In this document: positions 54,519 to 61,229 of the stretch, piece after piece
Layout: each line of letters begins with the position of its first letter
How positions within the stretch are numbered: the first letter of the stretch is position 1
DNA from: Candidatus Latescibacterota bacterium
Lineage (GTDB): Bacteria; Latescibacterota; UBA2968; UBA8231
NCBI GenBank assembly: GCA_965215195.1
Contig: CBDCDC010000002.1
Location: 544,001 to 608,000 of the forward strand
Direction: 5' to 3'
Length of the DNA stretch: 64,000 bases
Notes under the pieces: model-generated
Told to the model about the DNA's origin: nothing
Seen by the model: the letters and a program-made list of their open reading frames with translations, nothing else
The model's database searches: none
Program-made: the position numbers and the translations under genes

Positions 54519-54546
54519 ATGTCTTATAAGGATGATTATGTCAATC
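54519..54546 (+). other. dif-like Xer site 1
   Basis: ATGTCTTATAA-GGATGA-TTATGTCAATC (11-6-11), overlapping the leuS RBS and start. Confidence 0.65.
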
Positions 54547-57420
54547 AAAAAAAAAGGCCAATACAATTTCCAAGCCATCGAAACCAAATGGCGATCTCAC
54601 TGGGCGCAGGAGAAGACCTATCAAACGCTGGGACCGGGGGATCCCGGCTTCGATAACAGCAAACCCAAGTGCTACATCCTCGATATGTTTCCCTATTCAA
54701 GCGGCGCCGGGTTGCACATCGGCCATCCCAAAGGGTATATCGCCAGCGACATTTACAGCCGCTACAAAAGGATGTGGGGGTTTAACGTCCTGCACCCGAT
54801 GGGGTTCGACAGTTTTGGATTGCCGGCCGAGCAATACGCCATCGAACACAATGTCCATCCAGCGACCTTTACCGAGCAGAATATCGCTGCGATGCGCAGC
54901 CAATTGCAGTTTCTCGGGCTGTCGTTTGACTGGGCTCGCGAAGTGGTCACGTCGCGGCCGTCGTATTACCGCTGGACGCAGTGGATTTTCGCCCAACTCT
55001 TCGATAGCTATTTCGACGCAGACGAAATCTGGGAAGACGGCAATGGACGCCAAATAAAGGGGCGGACCAAGCCCATCGCCGACTTAGAGGCGCAATTTGC
55101 GGCCGGCCGGGCCTTGTCGGCCACAGATCGCCAAGTTCTTGGCAGCGACGCGGTTTGGTCTGCACTAACCGAGGCCGAGCACCAAACGGTGCTGAATAAC
55201 TACCGGCTGGCGTACCAGCAAGAGGCTGTCGTCAACTGGTGCCCTCGCTTGGGCACTGTGTTGGCCAACGAGGAGGTGACCAGCGAGGGCCGCAGCGAGC
55301 GGGGCAATTTTCCCGTGTATCGCAAACCGTTGCGGCAATGGACGATGCGCATAACAGCCTACGCCGAGCGGCTCTTAGAGGACTTGGACCTTGAACTGGA
55401 AGACCGCGCTGGCGAGCCCTTCCGGATCGATTGGCCAGAACCCATCAAGCGGATGCAGCGCAACTGGATCGGCCGCAGCGAAGGGGCTGAAGTGCGCTTC
55501 GATGTCCTCGATCCGCAAAGCGACGTGGTCGCCGCGCAGTTGCCCGTGTTCACCACCCGGCCCGACACGCTCTTTGGGGCGACTTTTATGGCCATTGCCC
55601 CTCAGCATCCGCTGGTAGATCCTGCCAAAGAATCCTACTTGGTCCCCAAGGCTTGGCCCGACGGGACGCCCGAACAGTGGAAGGGGGGAGGGGACCTCAT
55701 CCGGGAAGCCGTAGCCCAGTACGTAGCTCAAACGGCCGTCTCCACCGCGGATGAAACCAAGGAAAAAACGGGCATTTTCTCCGGCATCTACGCCCGCAAT
55801 CCGGTCAATGGACAAAAAATCCCCATTTTCGTCGCCGACTACGTCAGCATGGACTACGGCGCGGGAGCCATTATGGCGGTGCCGGCCCACGACGAGCGCG
55901 ACTTTGCCTTCGCCATCACGTATAACTTGGATATTGTGCGGGTGGTTGATGGGGGGGAAGGGGAGGCCGCAGGGTGGTATGCCGGGGAGGGAATCGCCAT
56001 CAATTCGCCTTCAGTACTCGCCAGCGATAGTCCATACACCATTAACGGATTGGCGACGGCCGCGGCCAAAGACCAGATCGTCGCTGCACTCGCTGCCCAA
56101 GGGCGAGGCCAAGCTGCGGTAAACTACAAACTGCGCGACTGGACCTTTGCTCGGCAGCGCTATTGGGGAGAACCCTTTCCACTGGCCACGCATCCCGATG
56201 GATATTCCGTCAAAGTCACGCCTCCGGTGGCGCTACCGGCACTAGAGGACTTCAGGCCGGAGACCTCGGATGACCCCGCCCAACCCGTTTCTCCGCCGCT
56301 GCACCGGGCCGGAGCGGAGTGGACGACGGTGGAAATTGACGGGGTGGCCTGCCAACGCGATCTCAACGTCATGCCCCAATGGGCCGGTTCTTGCTGGTAC
56401 TATCTCCGCTTTATCGATCCGCACAACGAAGAAGCCTTCTGCGACCCGGCCAAGGAGGGCTACTTCATGCCCGTTGATCTCTACATCGGCGGTGCGGAAC
56501 ACGCGGTGTTGCACTTGCTCTACGCCCGGTTTTGGCACAAGGCCCTCTACGACTTAGGCCACGTATCCACGCCCGAGCCGTTTAAGAAGCTGTTCAATCA
56601 AGGCATGATGACCGCGGATGCCTTTCAGGACGAGCGCGGCGTGTATATCGACATTCGGGAGGTTGAGTTCCGCGACGGGGAGCCTGTTGAGAAGGGGACG
56701 GGCAAGACGCTGCATCGGTCTTCTGGCAAGATGGGCAAACGCTACAAAAACGGATTGCCGCCCGAAGAAGTCGGCGAGGAATTTGGCGTGGATACCCTGC
56801 GGCTGTACGAAATGTACATGGGGCCGCTCGAAGCGAGTGCGCCGTGGAGCATGGAAGGCATTCGCGGGATGCAGCGCTTTTTGCAGCGCATTTGGCGCAA
56901 CTTTGTCGATTCGGATCGACAGGTGAAAATAGGGGAGAGTGCTGCGTTAGTGCCGGAGTTGGAACGCAAGCTGCACCAAACCATCCAAAAGGTAACTGAG
57001 GACATAGAAGGGCTGCGGTTTAATACGGCTATTGCCACCTTGATCGAGCTAAACAACCTGTTGGTCCCCTTGGACGAGGTGCCGCAGGCCGTCGCCAAGC
57101 CCTTCTTGCTCTTGCTCGCGCCCTTTGCTCCGCATATTGCCGAGGAGCTATGGGAGTTGGCGAATTTTGGGAAGGGAGACCTCAATCGTCAGAGCTGGCC
57201 TGACTGGGATGCCGCAAAAGCCGCCGAGGACATGATCGTAGTGCCCATTCAGGTCAACGGCAAAATGCGCGGACAAGTCGAAGTGCCGGTCCACACCGGA
57301 GAGGACGAGATAAAGTCCTTGGTGCTCGCCATGGCGAGCATCCGCAAATACGTGGCCGATGAAACGGCGATAAAGCGGTTTATATGGGTGCCGGATAGAA
57401 TCGTCAATATCGTGGTGTAG
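54538..57420 (+). CDS. leuS: Leucine--tRNA ligase
   Basis: MFPY.SG.GLHIGH, FTTRPDT, YIGGAEHAVLHLLY, KMGKR (KMSKS variant). Confidence 0.98.
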   Translation: MSIKKKGQYNFQAIETKWRSHWAQEKTYQTLGPGDPGFDNSKPKCYILDMFPYSSGAGLHIGHPKGYIASDIYSRYKRMWGFNVLHPMGFDSFGLPAEQYAIEHNVHPATFTEQNIAAMRSQLQFLGLSFDWAREVVTSRPSYYRWTQWIFAQLFDSYFDADEIWEDGNGRQIKGRTKPIADLEAQFAAGRALSATDRQVLGSDAVWSALTEAEHQTVLNNYRLAYQQEAVVNWCPRLGTVLANEEVTSEGRSERGNFPVYRKPLRQWTMRITAYAERLLEDLDLELEDRAGEPFRIDWPEPIKRMQRNWIGRSEGAEVRFDVLDPQSDVVAAQLPVFTTRPDTLFGATFMAIAPQHPLVDPAKESYLVPKAWPDGTPEQWKGGGDLIREAVAQYVAQTAVSTADETKEKTGIFSGIYARNPVNGQKIPIFVADYVSMDYGAGAIMAVPAHDERDFAFAITYNLDIVRVVDGGEGEAAGWYAGEGIAINSPSVLASDSPYTINGLATAAAKDQIVAALAAQGRGQAAVNYKLRDWTFARQRYWGEPFPLATHPDGYSVKVTPPVALPALEDFRPETSDDPAQPVSPPLHRAGAEWTTVEIDGVACQRDLNVMPQWAGSCWYYLRFIDPHNEEAFCDPAKEGYFMPVDLYIGGAEHAVLHLLYARFWHKALYDLGHVSTPEPFKKLFNQGMMTADAFQDERGVYIDIREVEFRDGEPVEKGTGKTLHRSSGKMGKRYKNGLPPEEVGEEFGVDTLRLYEMYMGPLEASAPWSMEGIRGMQRFLQRIWRNFVDSDRQVKIGESAALVPELERKLHQTIQKVTEDIEGLRFNTAIATLIELNNLLVPLDEVPQAVAKPFLLLLAPFAPHIAEELWELANFGKGDLNRQSWPDWDAAKAAEDMIVVPIQVNGKMRGQVEVPVHTGEDEIKSLVLAMASIRKYVADETAIKRFIWVPDRIVNIVV

Positions 57421-57442: not shown

Positions 57443-57470
57443 AAGTCTTATAAAATTTTTTATGTAAATA
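57443..57470 (+). other. dif-like Xer site 2
   Basis: AAGTCTTATAA-AATTTT-TTATGTAAATA. Confidence 0.75.
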
Positions 57471-57492: not shown

Positions 57493-58473
57493 TCAGCTAC
57501 CAATACCAATCCTAATATAATCCGACGCATTATCGAGCAGTTTATCGCGGTTCTCGTAGTAGCGCATGGTCGTCTTTAGATCCTTGTGGCGCAAATGGGC
57601 TTGCACCTGCTGGGGCTTGGCCCCGCCTTCAATCGCCAAGGTGCAGCAGGTGTGGCGGAACATGTGCGCGGTGACGTTTTGGGGGAGGCCGGCGCGCAGG
57701 GCGTACTTCTTGACGATGTGATTTACCGACTGATCGGTTAGTGGCTGGCCGCGAGACTGGTTGCGCGACAGGCTGATGAAAACCTTGCCCGTCGTCGGCA
57801 AGCCCGCTGCTCGTAGTTGTTGTTTGTATAGTTCGAGATGATGCAGGACGACGCTTTGCAGTTTGATTTCCTGCGCCATGCCCGATTTAGTCTGGGGCAG
57901 GTGCAAAATGTAAAAGACGCCCTCCAAAGATATATCCTCCCAAGCGACGCCCGCCACTTCGGAGCGGCGCAGCCCACCGAAAGTGAGCAACTGAAACATA
58001 GCCGCATCGCGCGTACGGACCAAGTCGTCTTTTTCCTCGGCAATGGCTTGCTGGATCTTGTTCAGCACCTGATTGGAAAGTGCTTTGCCGGCCAGCGTTT
58101 CATCTACCTTGTAACCGCGCACCAAGGTGGAGTCGGCGGGATTTTTCTCGATGTGGCCCAAGGCGACCAACATCTTGAAGAACGACTTTAGGCTGGATAA
58201 TTTTCTGTTGATGCTGCTGCGCTTGTAACCTTCGCTGGCGAGTTGGTTTCTAAAGGCGACCACGTGCTCAAAGGTGATTGACTGCAAGACAGCGAGGGAC
58301 ACTTTATCCAGTTCCAAGCCGATAGATAAAAAGAAATGCTGGAGATCGGCGTAATAGGCACGCCGGGTGCGCTCGCTGAGCTGGCCGCTGAGAAATTGTT
58401 CCAAAGGATCGTCTGACGCCACCGCGGGTGTTGGCGTCAGACTGCGGACGACCGGAGTGAGTGTGCGGCTCAT
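57493..58473 (-). CDS. Tyrosine recombinase (Xer-like, not canonical XerC/XerD)
   Basis: SAM-like N-domain (TRRAY..DL; SINRKLSSLKSFF), GLRRSEV, TKSG, HMFRH, HLRH, TTMRY catalytic set. Confidence 0.95.
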   Translation of the reverse strand: MSRTLTPVVRSLTPTPAVASDDPLEQFLSGQLSERTRRAYYADLQHFFLSIGLELDKVSLAVLQSITFEHVVAFRNQLASEGYKRSSINRKLSSLKSFFKMLVALGHIEKNPADSTLVRGYKVDETLAGKALSNQVLNKIQQAIAEEKDDLVRTRDAAMFQLLTFGGLRRSEVAGVAWEDISLEGVFYILHLPQTKSGMAQEIKLQSVVLHHLELYKQQLRAAGLPTTGKVFISLSRNQSRGQPLTDQSVNHIVKKYALRAGLPQNVTAHMFRHTCCTLAIEGGAKPQQVQAHLRHKDLKTTMRYYENRDKLLDNASDYIRIGIGS

Positions 58474-58596
58474 TGAATATGCTTACAGGGGCTAAAGGTC
58501 TGAGGCATTAAATATCCGGGATGTTCTTAACAGTGGCTAAAGAATAGAGTAAATATAGCGAACATCGCGGCATTTTGCTGTCGATTCGCCTAGACA

Positions 58597-58632
58597 TTAT
58601 ACTACCGATAACAGGCATTATCGGTAGTATAA
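58597..58632. other. Perfect palindromic recombinase crossover-type site
   Basis: TTATACTACCGATAA-CAGGCA-TTATCGGTAGTATAA; 15-bp perfect arms and an asymmetric 6-bp spacer. Confidence 0.85.
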
Positions 58633-58654
58633 ATCGTAAAAAAATAAAAGTCAA
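58626..58654 (-). promoter_or_regulatory. Sigma70-type promoter of the recombinase, overlapping the palindrome
   Basis: Minus strand TTGACT-17 nt-TATACT. Confidence 0.75.
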
Positions 58655-58893
58655 TGAGAGCGAGACAAAGACATGTAACGTCGGCTGGATTGGTCTGTTG
58701 GTGTTGGCCTTGGTTTCGGTGTGGCGTGGTTTCCTTGGCGGCGCGTCAGCTTCTCGCTGCGTCAAGGCATCGAACTGTCATACAAATATGCCTCCAACGT
58801 TCCGCCGAAGCCCGAACTTGACCATTCACATAGGTTTTCCTTGGGCGTTCCGTCTATGCGCCTACTTGCGCTCGTCCATTTTTAGTTGCAGCC

Positions 58894-60666
58894 CTATAAC
58901 TTCTGCAACAAACGCTCCATATCGCGCAACTTCATCCGCGCCATGATCGGCTTGTCCGTCGGGCTTATGTGCGGCCGGTCAACCTTGAGCAATTCGTCGA
59001 TCAAATGCGCCATTGCCTCGGCGTTCAGTTTCTGCCCCTTCTTGATACTCGCTTTGCGCGCATAAGCCAAGACGAGTGCTTCGCGCCAAGATCGGCCCGA
59101 ATGCTGGCCATCGCGCACGTCGTTCAATAGCTGATAAAAAGCATCGCCTTCGCCAAAGCGATCCAATTCGGCGGGCATTGCCTCCACCAACACCGTCCGC
59201 GTACCAAAATCCCGCACGCCAAAGCCCAGCTTGGCAATGTCGGCCCGCACTTGCTCGAAGACCGCAAAATCCGCTGCGCCCATTTCTAGCTGGATGGGAA
59301 AGAGCAACTGCTGACTCTCGCCAGCCACGCCGTCCATTTGCGCCATGGCCCGATCGTAGTTGATGCGCTCGTGCGCGGCCTGCTGATCGACGAAGAGCAA
59401 GCCGTCGGCAACCTCGACGAGGATGTACTGGTTGTGGACCTGCCACATCGCGGCGTTTTCGACCAAGGCGACTTTGGCCGCGGCCGGGGCGACGAAGGTC
59501 AAGGCGAGTTCGTCGTCTGCACCGTGGGTTGCTGCTACCGCGGACTCGCCAGGTGCGGCCGGGCTGTGCAACACCGGCGACGCTGGTTCGCCCACGCGGG
59601 CCGTAGCACTGGGAGGTGTGCTGTCCGGCCGCATTGGGGCCGCAGCATAGACAAAGGATTGCACATCGGGCAGCCTGAGCTTCTGCCGGACGCTGTCTTC
59701 AATGGCCGCGATGACCTGCCCTTCGTTGGCCAAGCGAATCTCCCGCTTTGTCGGATGGACATTGACATCGATCTTCTTGGGATCCATATCGATCCAGAGC
59801 ATGAATACCGGATGGTGTCCTTCGGGCAGCAGCCCCTCAAAACACCGCTGTACAGCACTGGCCATCAGTCGCGAAGAAATGGGCCGCCCCTGTACGATGA
59901 GGTACTGCTTGCCCTTGCTCCGGCCGCAGTGCTCAGGACCAGCCAAGACGCCTTCGATTTTGAGGCCCTCTTCCTCATAAGCGAGATCCAACAGTTCGGC
60001 GGCTGGATCAGCCCGGCCTCGCATGCCCAACAACTCGGCCGCCCGCTCCCGACGAGGTGCCGGGGCGTAGCTCAATACTTGGTGCGCTTGGTGCGCTAGT
60101 TCAAAGCCAAGGGCCGGGTAACCGGCGGCTAAATGAATGATGGTCTGGGCCACGTGCCGGGCTTCCGCCTCGACGGAGCGGAGGAATTTGCGCCGCGCCG
60201 GCGTATTAAAAAACAAGTTCTTTACCGCGATAGTCGTGCCGCGTACGCGGCCCATGCTGTGCATCTCTCGCTCTATGCCCCCTTCCACGACCAAGCGCGT
60301 CCCGACTTCGTCTTGCTGGGTGCGCGATTCTATCGCCAAGTGAGCCACCGCCCCAATGCTGGCTAGCGCCTCGCCGCGAAATCCCAGCGTCTGAATGCGA
60401 AATAGGTCGGCCACCGAGGCCATCTTGCTCGTGGCATGACGGCGCACACACAAAGCGATATCCTCCCTGTTCATGCCCGATCCATCGTCGGTCACCACAA
60501 TCGACTGCTTGCCACCGGCCTTAATTTCCACGCGGATTTTAGCAGCGCCCGCATCGATCGAGTTTTCGACCAATTCCTTCACGACCGAGGCCGGCCGTTC
60601 CACCACCTCGCCAGCGGCAATTTTGCCAATGAGACTTTCGTCGAGAACGCGAATGGTACTCGCCAT
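58894..60666 (-). CDS. mutL: DNA mismatch repair endonuclease MutL
   Basis: IAAGEVVERPASVVKELVENSIDA, TLGFRGEAL, DVNVHPTK, DQQAAHER; C-terminal Zn-ligand motifs diverged (ASIK, HISP). Confidence 0.97.
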   Translation of the reverse strand: MASTIRVLDESLIGKIAAGEVVERPASVVKELVENSIDAGAAKIRVEIKAGGKQSIVVTDDGSGMNREDIALCVRRHATSKMASVADLFRIQTLGFRGEALASIGAVAHLAIESRTQQDEVGTRLVVEGGIEREMHSMGRVRGTTIAVKNLFFNTPARRKFLRSVEAEARHVAQTIIHLAAGYPALGFELAHQAHQVLSYAPAPRRERAAELLGMRGRADPAAELLDLAYEEEGLKIEGVLAGPEHCGRSKGKQYLIVQGRPISSRLMASAVQRCFEGLLPEGHHPVFMLWIDMDPKKIDVNVHPTKREIRLANEGQVIAAIEDSVRQKLRLPDVQSFVYAAAPMRPDSTPPSATARVGEPASPVLHSPAAPGESAVAATHGADDELALTFVAPAAAKVALVENAAMWQVHNQYILVEVADGLLFVDQQAAHERINYDRAMAQMDGVAGESQQLLFPIQLEMGAADFAVFEQVRADIAKLGFGVRDFGTRTVLVEAMPAELDRFGEGDAFYQLLNDVRDGQHSGRSWREALVLAYARKASIKKGQKLNAEAMAHLIDELLKVDRPHISPTDKPIMARMKLRDMERLLQKL

Positions 60667-61201: not shown

Positions 61202-61229
61202 TGTTTACATAAAAAATTTTATTGGACAT
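61202..61229 (-). other. dif-like Xer site 3 (inverted relative to site 2)
   Basis: Minus strand ATGTCCAATAA-AATTTT-TTATGTAAACA; 24/28 identical to site 2. Confidence 0.75.

Follow-up and report, generated by a model that had tools for sequence, protein, structure and literature searches.

Why should a chromosome that is already equipped with XerC, XerD and dif-like sites keep a further tyrosine recombinase beside a site of its own? Known dimer-resolution systems use either XerC and XerD or one replacement recombinase. At the locus described here, a full XerCD/dif set and a strongly conserved recombinase/site pair lie within a few kilobases of each other at the replication terminus, and some relatives have exchanged the pair for a Cre-like one. 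The locus comes from an uncultured bacterium of the Latescibacterota and is contained in a stretch of 64,000 nucleotides, referred to below as the window, which corresponds to C2:544,001-608,000 of a two-contig assembly; positions without a contig prefix are those of the window. We found no earlier description of the pair in PMC open-access full texts or bioRxiv.

The recombinase gene, P0001 (57493..58473, minus strand), was defined by its open reading frame and translation and encodes a Xer-family tyrosine recombinase of 326 amino acids. Its convergent downstream neighbour is leuS (54532..57420, plus strand; Pfam tRNA-synt_1_2, tRNA-synt_1 and Anticodon_1), and mutL (58894..60666, minus strand; Pfam MutL_C, DNA_mis_repair and HATPase_c_3) lies upstream, which agrees with a preliminary description of this DNA that saw no phage or ICE genes adjacent to the recombinase. 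Two Pfam domains were found in the protein, Phage_integrase (1e-27) and SAM_1. Against PF00589 it scored 97.5 bits (cut-off 27.1), and an alignment with its relatives and with the XerC and XerD of the same genome showed conservation of the catalytic residues R169, K196, H270, R273, H296 and Y305. With a Phage_integrase domain and the residues R-K-H-R-H/W-Y, P0001 belongs to the tyrosine recombinase superfamily; the motifs HMFRHTCCT and QAHLRH, to which attention had been drawn before, can be read in its translation. The more specific models all scored it below their cut-offs: 137 bits against 335.15 for XerC (TIGR02224) and 126 against 329.6 for XerD (TIGR02225), so that it is an equivalog of neither, 80 against 267 for XerS (NF003462), 114 against 220 for XerA (NF040815) and 43 against 265 for integron integrase (TIGR02249). 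The best PDB match was E. coli XerD (8.7e-18), and no XerH structure was among the PDB matches at E ≤ 1e-8. Judged by model scores and PDB matches, on which its placement relative to XerS, XerH and XerA is based, P0001 is Xer-like and lies outside the XerC, XerD, XerS and XerA models. The 5' coding part of the gene also contains an 11-nt perfect inverted repeat (58411-58421 and 58432-58442) with a 10-nt spacer.

P0001 had been taken for a solo recombinase and for the enzyme of a single-Xer system, and the rest of the genome speaks against both. PF00589 has four matches in it, and P0001 is the third Xer-like gene. The genome codes for a genuine XerD, which scores 347 bits where the cut-off is 329.6, for an XerC that is near threshold (318 bits against 335.15) and passes the subfamily model NF001399, and for an FtsK with a gamma domain, and it contains canonical dif-like 28-mers. 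P0001 is therefore not the only Xer system of a genome without a classical dif, as the recombinase of a single-recombinase system would be. The fourth tyrosine recombinase gene (C2:323,003-324,121, minus strand) has 372 codons, and its best NCBIfam score, 122 bits for XerC, falls well short of the cut-off.

Upstream of P0001 lies its putative recombination site, a 15-6-15 palindrome (58597..58632, no strand) that forms an inverted repeat without mismatch. Its two 15-nt arms (58597-58611 and 58618-58632) have 100% complementarity and carry ATAA and TTAT at their inner ends; between them is an asymmetric 6-nt core, CAGGCA (58612-58617). These coordinates reproduce the palindrome as it was first reported, including its inner ends and the 123 bp that separate it from the recombinase ATG, and support the dif-like geometry ascribed to it. 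The whole palindrome has one copy in the 6,134,125-bp genome, and the looser pattern CGATAA-N6-TTATCG has two matches. Within the window, the 15-mer arm occurs without mismatch solely in the two arms themselves, and one extra match with three mismatches is at chance level. Among genus loci the outer ATACT and inner GATAA blocks of the arms are fixed and the three bases between them vary. Several genomes have perfectly symmetric variants of these middle bases (ACC/GGT, AAC/GTT and CCC/GGG), and many have a stem with two mismatches in which the outer and inner blocks are unchanged. On neither strand is there a T-run after the hairpin, a terminator scan of the locus did not return the palindrome among its predictions, an Rfam search of the locus found no family, and no tRNA gene was found there.

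A second site of the same arm type, here called site 2, is present at C2:1,669,661-1,669,692 (L111:7662-7693) with the core GGGATA; of 30 other genus genomes searched, 10 have it too. Site 2 falls between genes, upstream of a 334-aa ORF without a Pfam family from which it is separated by about 180 bp, and lies away from any skew switch.

Cumulative G-C reaches its genome-wide maximum at 58740 (C2:602,740, no strand), a point that marks the replication terminus; the palindrome (C2:602,597-602,632) is some 110 bp away, and this places the module at the terminus. The cumulative minimum is at C2:3,523,387, 1 kb from the only DnaA match, and dnaA is at C2:3,524,363. Skew over the 20 kb on either side of the palindrome is +0.045 and -0.059, as the earlier dif-like reading would have it; GC skew is too coarse in resolution to separate the palindrome from dif-like sites 1.2-2.6 kb away. 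A site at the GC-skew switch is also what single-recombinase Xer/dif systems have. The change from plus to minus was found at the site in 6/6 genus genomes (our own and five others sampled) and at site 2, which served as a control, in 0/6. In other genera the sign of the skew changes at the P0001 orthologue in 6/8 genomes; in G096 and G119 there is no sign change at the orthologue, the skew being weakly positive on either side. A related palindrome in three genomes of another family of the class (G073, G120 and G078) was considered as an outgroup dif; it lies away from the skew switch, and so no outgroup dif was obtained.

Canonical sites lie on both sides of the pair. A dif-like 28-mer of the XerCD type, AAGTCTTATAA-AATTTT-TTATGTAAATA, is located at 57443..57470 (plus strand) between the stops of leuS and the recombinase, 23 bp past the recombinase stop codon, and is found just 3' of the gene in most genus loci. 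Its layout is the classical one of dif as tabulated for proteobacteria (PMC2731167, in excerpt). A second perfect 28-mer (61202..61229, minus strand) also has the core AATTTT and is inverted with respect to the one at 57443-57470. A third, with one mismatch (54519..54546, plus strand), extends over the start codon of leuS, with ATGs at 54532 and 54538 in its core and right arm, and the overlap is kept in the genus. Across the genome, ATAA-N6-TTATGTAAA with at most one mismatch occurs at five places, all of them within the 29 kb of C2:598,526-627,680. The plus strand has two of them to the left of the skew maximum and the minus strand three to its right, the latter including two beyond the window (C2:610,778 and C2:627,680). 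Matches with two mismatches number 23 and are scattered over the genome.

A convergent array of 28-mers was likewise present within 20 kb of the site in five other genus genomes, where 23/25 matches fit the polarity; the two exceptions are two-mismatch matches 20 nt from a match that follows the rule, and eight 40-kb control regions together gave three weak matches. One search of three outgroup genomes from two other families returned apparently a single canonical site in each. The inverted 28-mers at 57443-57470 and 61202-61229 enclose, in our genome, mutL and one further ORF as well as the pair. In five genomes (G127, G130, G049, G058 and G082) two inverted 28-mers immediately flank P0001 and its site, and in G096 the two flanking 28-mers are direct, not inverted. 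The XerD-type arms of the bracketing sites point toward the module. No strand-changing joint between inverted dif-like sites was listed in the contigs of four sequencing runs. Apart from what it says about P0001, the convergent array is a separate and testable lead on terminus organisation in a little-studied phylum.

P0001 is conserved within its family. Orthologues with 80-93% identity were present in 22/24 of the genus genomes first sampled, and at E ≤ 1e-60 we found a match, in single copy each time, in 59/75 other family genomes. The 16/75 in which it was not found include some complete genomes, and six matches have one internal stop codon in the matched stretch. Searched at E ≤ 1e-35, 92 genomes representing 13 other families of the phylum gave no match. 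A large protein collection yielded 303 relatives at E ≤ 1e-20, of which the best 120 have 61-90% identity; at the same threshold no relatives were found on 72,556 plasmids or among 50,697 phage records. Compared between our genome and nine genomes of other genera, P0001 is 61-66% identical, LeuRS 62-68% and MutL 32-45%, and XerD is 59-62% identical in 4/5 other-genus genomes and 45% in G058. P0001, conserved like LeuRS and XerD, thus appears from these comparisons to be under purifying selection.

The nearest clade outside the family has 47% identity to P0001 and comes from marine metagenome contigs (L149-L161). Its members are preceded by a small ORF that looks XRE-type HTH-like by eye, a mobile-element-like context. 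Upstream 13-6-13 "palindromes" in this clade were set aside as candidate sites because, by eye, they fall inside the small HTH-like ORF. Neither leuS nor mutL was close to the relatives in any of 80 metagenome loci.

The site travels with the gene. Searching for ATACT-nnn-GATAA, six bases and TTATC-nnn-AGTAT, we found a palindrome-type site within 600 nt upstream of the orthologue at 29/32 loci from public genomes, the loci that failed this filter being L081, L085 and L087. In other genera a symmetry filter recovered an upstream site at 8/9 loci, and the ninth, in G127, has a degenerate copy recognizable by eye. A check for palindromes upstream of homologues, which the preliminary description had proposed, thus found the link between recombinase and site kept across the genus and in other genera. 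Gene and site are joined as a module, as in systems of the XerS and XerH types, and in the genus alignment the intergenic DNA around the site has diverged and the site itself is kept.

A different occupant was found where P0001 is missing. In all four genomes without P0001 that we examined (G052, G059, G080 and G068), a recombinase of 308-319 amino acids of a Cre-like type occupies the terminus locus between leuS and mutL (L141:420-1379, L144:412-1341, L143:3454-4383 on the minus strand and L142:3421-4347 on the minus strand). The copy from G059, the only one searched against PDB, had Cre as its best match (1.7e-19). Ahead of the ATG of each of these recombinases, at a distance of 10-35 nt, is a different 13-6-13 palindrome, the arms of which again end in ATAA and TTAT and have outer parts that differ. 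Site type and enzyme type thus switch together at one locus, and this is the best evidence that each palindrome belongs to the recombinase next to it. In G049 and in genus g14 the module is turned around with respect to mutL and leuS.

The palindrome had also been described as overlapping the promoter of P0001, with autoregulation as the consequence. A sigma-70-like TTGACT-17-TATACT (58626..58654, minus strand; 10/12 positions) is indeed present with its -10 in the outer end of a palindrome arm, but it is one match in 1.7 kb compared with 1.6 expected from shuffles, and the overlap is not conserved because the TTGACT -35 box sits in a strain-specific insertion. This insertion of 261 bp (58633..58893, no strand) lies between the palindrome and the mutL stop and is absent in 11/11 other genus loci aligned, in which the palindrome is about 20 nt past the mutL stop. 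By blastn it had no match at any other fetched locus; its bases 59-140 (82 nt) are 83% like C2:3266455-3266536. A better promoter candidate is probably a conserved upstream block beginning GATGTTCGCTATATTT (58546..58580, minus strand), the columns of which are near-invariant in the genus alignment, and TATATTTGG-like blocks are found upstream of the ATG in G127 and G130. Autoregulation of P0001 is possible, without a conserved structural basis. Different insertions adjoin the palindrome in our genome, G005, G004 and G018; in G018 (L007) the final ~130 nt of mutL are repeated in degenerate form between the mutL stop and the palindrome.

In the sense orientation of the gene, 23 loci have a CAGGCA-like core, four have TGCCTG, our own genome among them, and two have another sequence. 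Contigs of three runs from one study, which are assembled contigs and not reads, have the core opposite to that of the window within flanks that are about 99.6% alike; to the left of 58681, the contigs of runs X1, X2 and X4 depart from the window sequence. Single-site recombination would be expected to leave the orientation of the core as it is and so would not explain the flipped cores. Template switching in a perfect palindrome could flip the core and make the arms identical.

Most likely, the pair embedded in the dif region is a second chromosome-resolution module of mobile-element origin. The anatomy of the site, its terminus position, its conservation, its linkage to the gene and the intact catalytic residues of the enzyme were all observed. 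That P0001 and the palindrome are a cognate pair and make up, next to XerCD/dif at the terminus, a resolution module complete in itself is a reading to which we give an about even chance. Binding of the palindrome by P0001, recombination there and a role in dimer resolution are what we infer by analogy with other tyrosine recombinases: each of the two symmetric arms (13-15 bp) would be occupied by one P0001 protomer, a pair of such sites from the two halves of a chromosome dimer would come together in a tetrameric synapse, and strand exchange would take place across the 6-bp core. Dimers would then be resolved as they are by XerS/difSL, XerH/difH or plasmid multimer-resolution modules, and the module would act alongside XerC/XerD-dif, not in its place. 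It was most likely acquired once, by insertion into the dif region of the family ancestor, and retained afterwards.

Known systems share some of these features and differ in others. XerS/difSL of streptococci and lactococci is, according to excerpts of PMC5357621, a terminus module in which the gene of a single recombinase adjoins its site, and the present locus resembles it in having one Xer-family recombinase gene beside its own site at the terminus. XerS replaces XerC/XerD, going by the same excerpts, whereas P0001 occurs together with XerD, XerC and canonical dif-like sites; difSL is given there as having an 11-bp central region and unequal arms, in contrast to the 6-bp core and symmetric arms of the palindrome. 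For XerH/difH of Helicobacter and Campylobacter, excerpts of PMC5357621 describe how one recombinase resolves dimers at a site in the terminus whose arms are inverted repeats, and for XerL/dif of Legionellales an excerpt of PMC9765430 describes dimer resolution by one recombinase at a terminus site. As these excerpts present them, the XerH and XerL organisms are without XerC/XerD, unlike the genome of P0001.

The symmetric-arm site just upstream of a recombinase gene is also a feature of plasmid multimer-resolution modules of the Cre/loxP type, and the Cre-like protein at the P0001 locus in four family genomes adds a link to them. The P0001 module differs in being chromosomal, at the terminus and vertically inherited, and P0001 is Xer-like, not Cre-like. 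In Acinetobacter, dif modules on plasmids and chromosomes are short gene modules bounded by inverted XerC/XerD-type sites (PMC13141974 and PMC12907356, both in excerpt). By these excerpts the P0001 module shares the inverted bounds, but here the cargo is a recombinase with its own site, and the further dif-like sites are polar and convergent where those of the Acinetobacter modules alternate. Nor does it show the mobility of dif modules, having one fixed, single-copy chromosomal locus family-wide and no plasmid match. IMEX, which integrate at dif through XerCD, have direct dif repeats and no recombinase of their own, whereas the P0001 module encodes a recombinase and its flanking sites are inverted except in G096.

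Several observations count against a resolution module. Because a complete canonical set is present, with XerD, a near-cut-off XerC, FtsK gamma and dif-like sites, a second resolution system is on its face unneeded. The module is confined to one family, it sits in either orientation between flanking dif-like sites, as a passenger would, its core is flipped in several lineages, and the nearest outside clade has a mobile-element-like context. It is possible, if doubtful, that the module is a vertically inherited mobile-element remnant in the dif region, dif-module-like or IMEX-like, and a long-retained passenger without a host role; the pair would then serve, or once have served, the element, and host dimers would be resolved by XerCD at the flanking 28-mers. 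The five genomes with direct inverted brackets would fit such a history, as would the different orientation in G049 and genus g14, the Cre-like replacement in G052, G059, G080 and G068, the restriction to one family, outgroup genomes with apparently one canonical site only, the HTH-like ORF upstream in the nearest outside clade and the different insertions beside the palindrome in our genome, G005, G004 and G018. A passenger would be less expected to be single-copy, syntenic and conserved like LeuRS and XerD with its catalytic residues intact; the module is without other element genes and has no plasmid or phage relatives, and inverted flanking sites permit inversion, not excision. The resolution-module and passenger readings grade into one another, as domestication. 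A more elaborate arrangement, which we think unlikely, would make the terminus a three-recombinase organising centre, with the P0001-type site as the crossover, the 28-mers re-used as oriented binding sites and the cassette exchangeable. In it the 28-mers, in an array convergent on both replichores, may for example stop or unload FtsK or SMC, and an Xer-like or Cre-like cassette may be exchanged via the flanking inverted dif-like sites.

P0001 could also serve mainly to bind DNA at a specific site of the terminus, without acting as a recombinase in vivo, and be an autorepressor or an architectural factor at whose site, for instance, FtsK or SMC might be stopped or unloaded. For B. subtilis, a review mentions a dedicated XerD/XDS system that unloads Smc-ScpAB (PMC11894783, in excerpt). 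In every lineage the site is found ahead of its own gene, it is central in the convergent dif-like array, and in our genome a sigma-70-like -10 is inside an arm, all of which a binding role would accommodate; the conservation of all catalytic residues family-wide, which pure binding does not require, and a core that is conserved within the genus where the promoter overlap is not, make it distinctly unlikely. That the palindrome is unrelated to P0001 is, to our minds, very unlikely. It would then be a site of XerC/XerD or of a regulator, or a hairpin such as a mutL terminator, and its arm ends ATAA/TTAT do resemble dif, it lies about 20 nt past the mutL stop in most genus genomes, and its arms co-vary in a hairpin-like manner. 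A terminator is at odds with the missing T-run, terminator prediction and Rfam match and with the two stem mismatches of many genomes in which the outer and inner blocks are fixed, and a palindrome independent of P0001 with the change of site type along with recombinase type and with the mere two CGATAA-N6-TTATCG sites in the genome.

If the pair is active, the dif region would be able to host and retain extra resolution cassettes, and the locus would offer a natural case for why two systems coexist. Compact recombinase/site pairs of this kind, with symmetric 13-6-13 sites and natural core variants, would then also have value as tools. Extra palindrome-type copies with other cores were found in G058 (12 matches) and G046 (nine matches). 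In G042, extra copies at C1:1,960,158/1,960,316 and 2,709,038/2,709,196 form two inverted pairs, each with its members 158 bp apart, which may be segments capable of inversion or small mobile elements.
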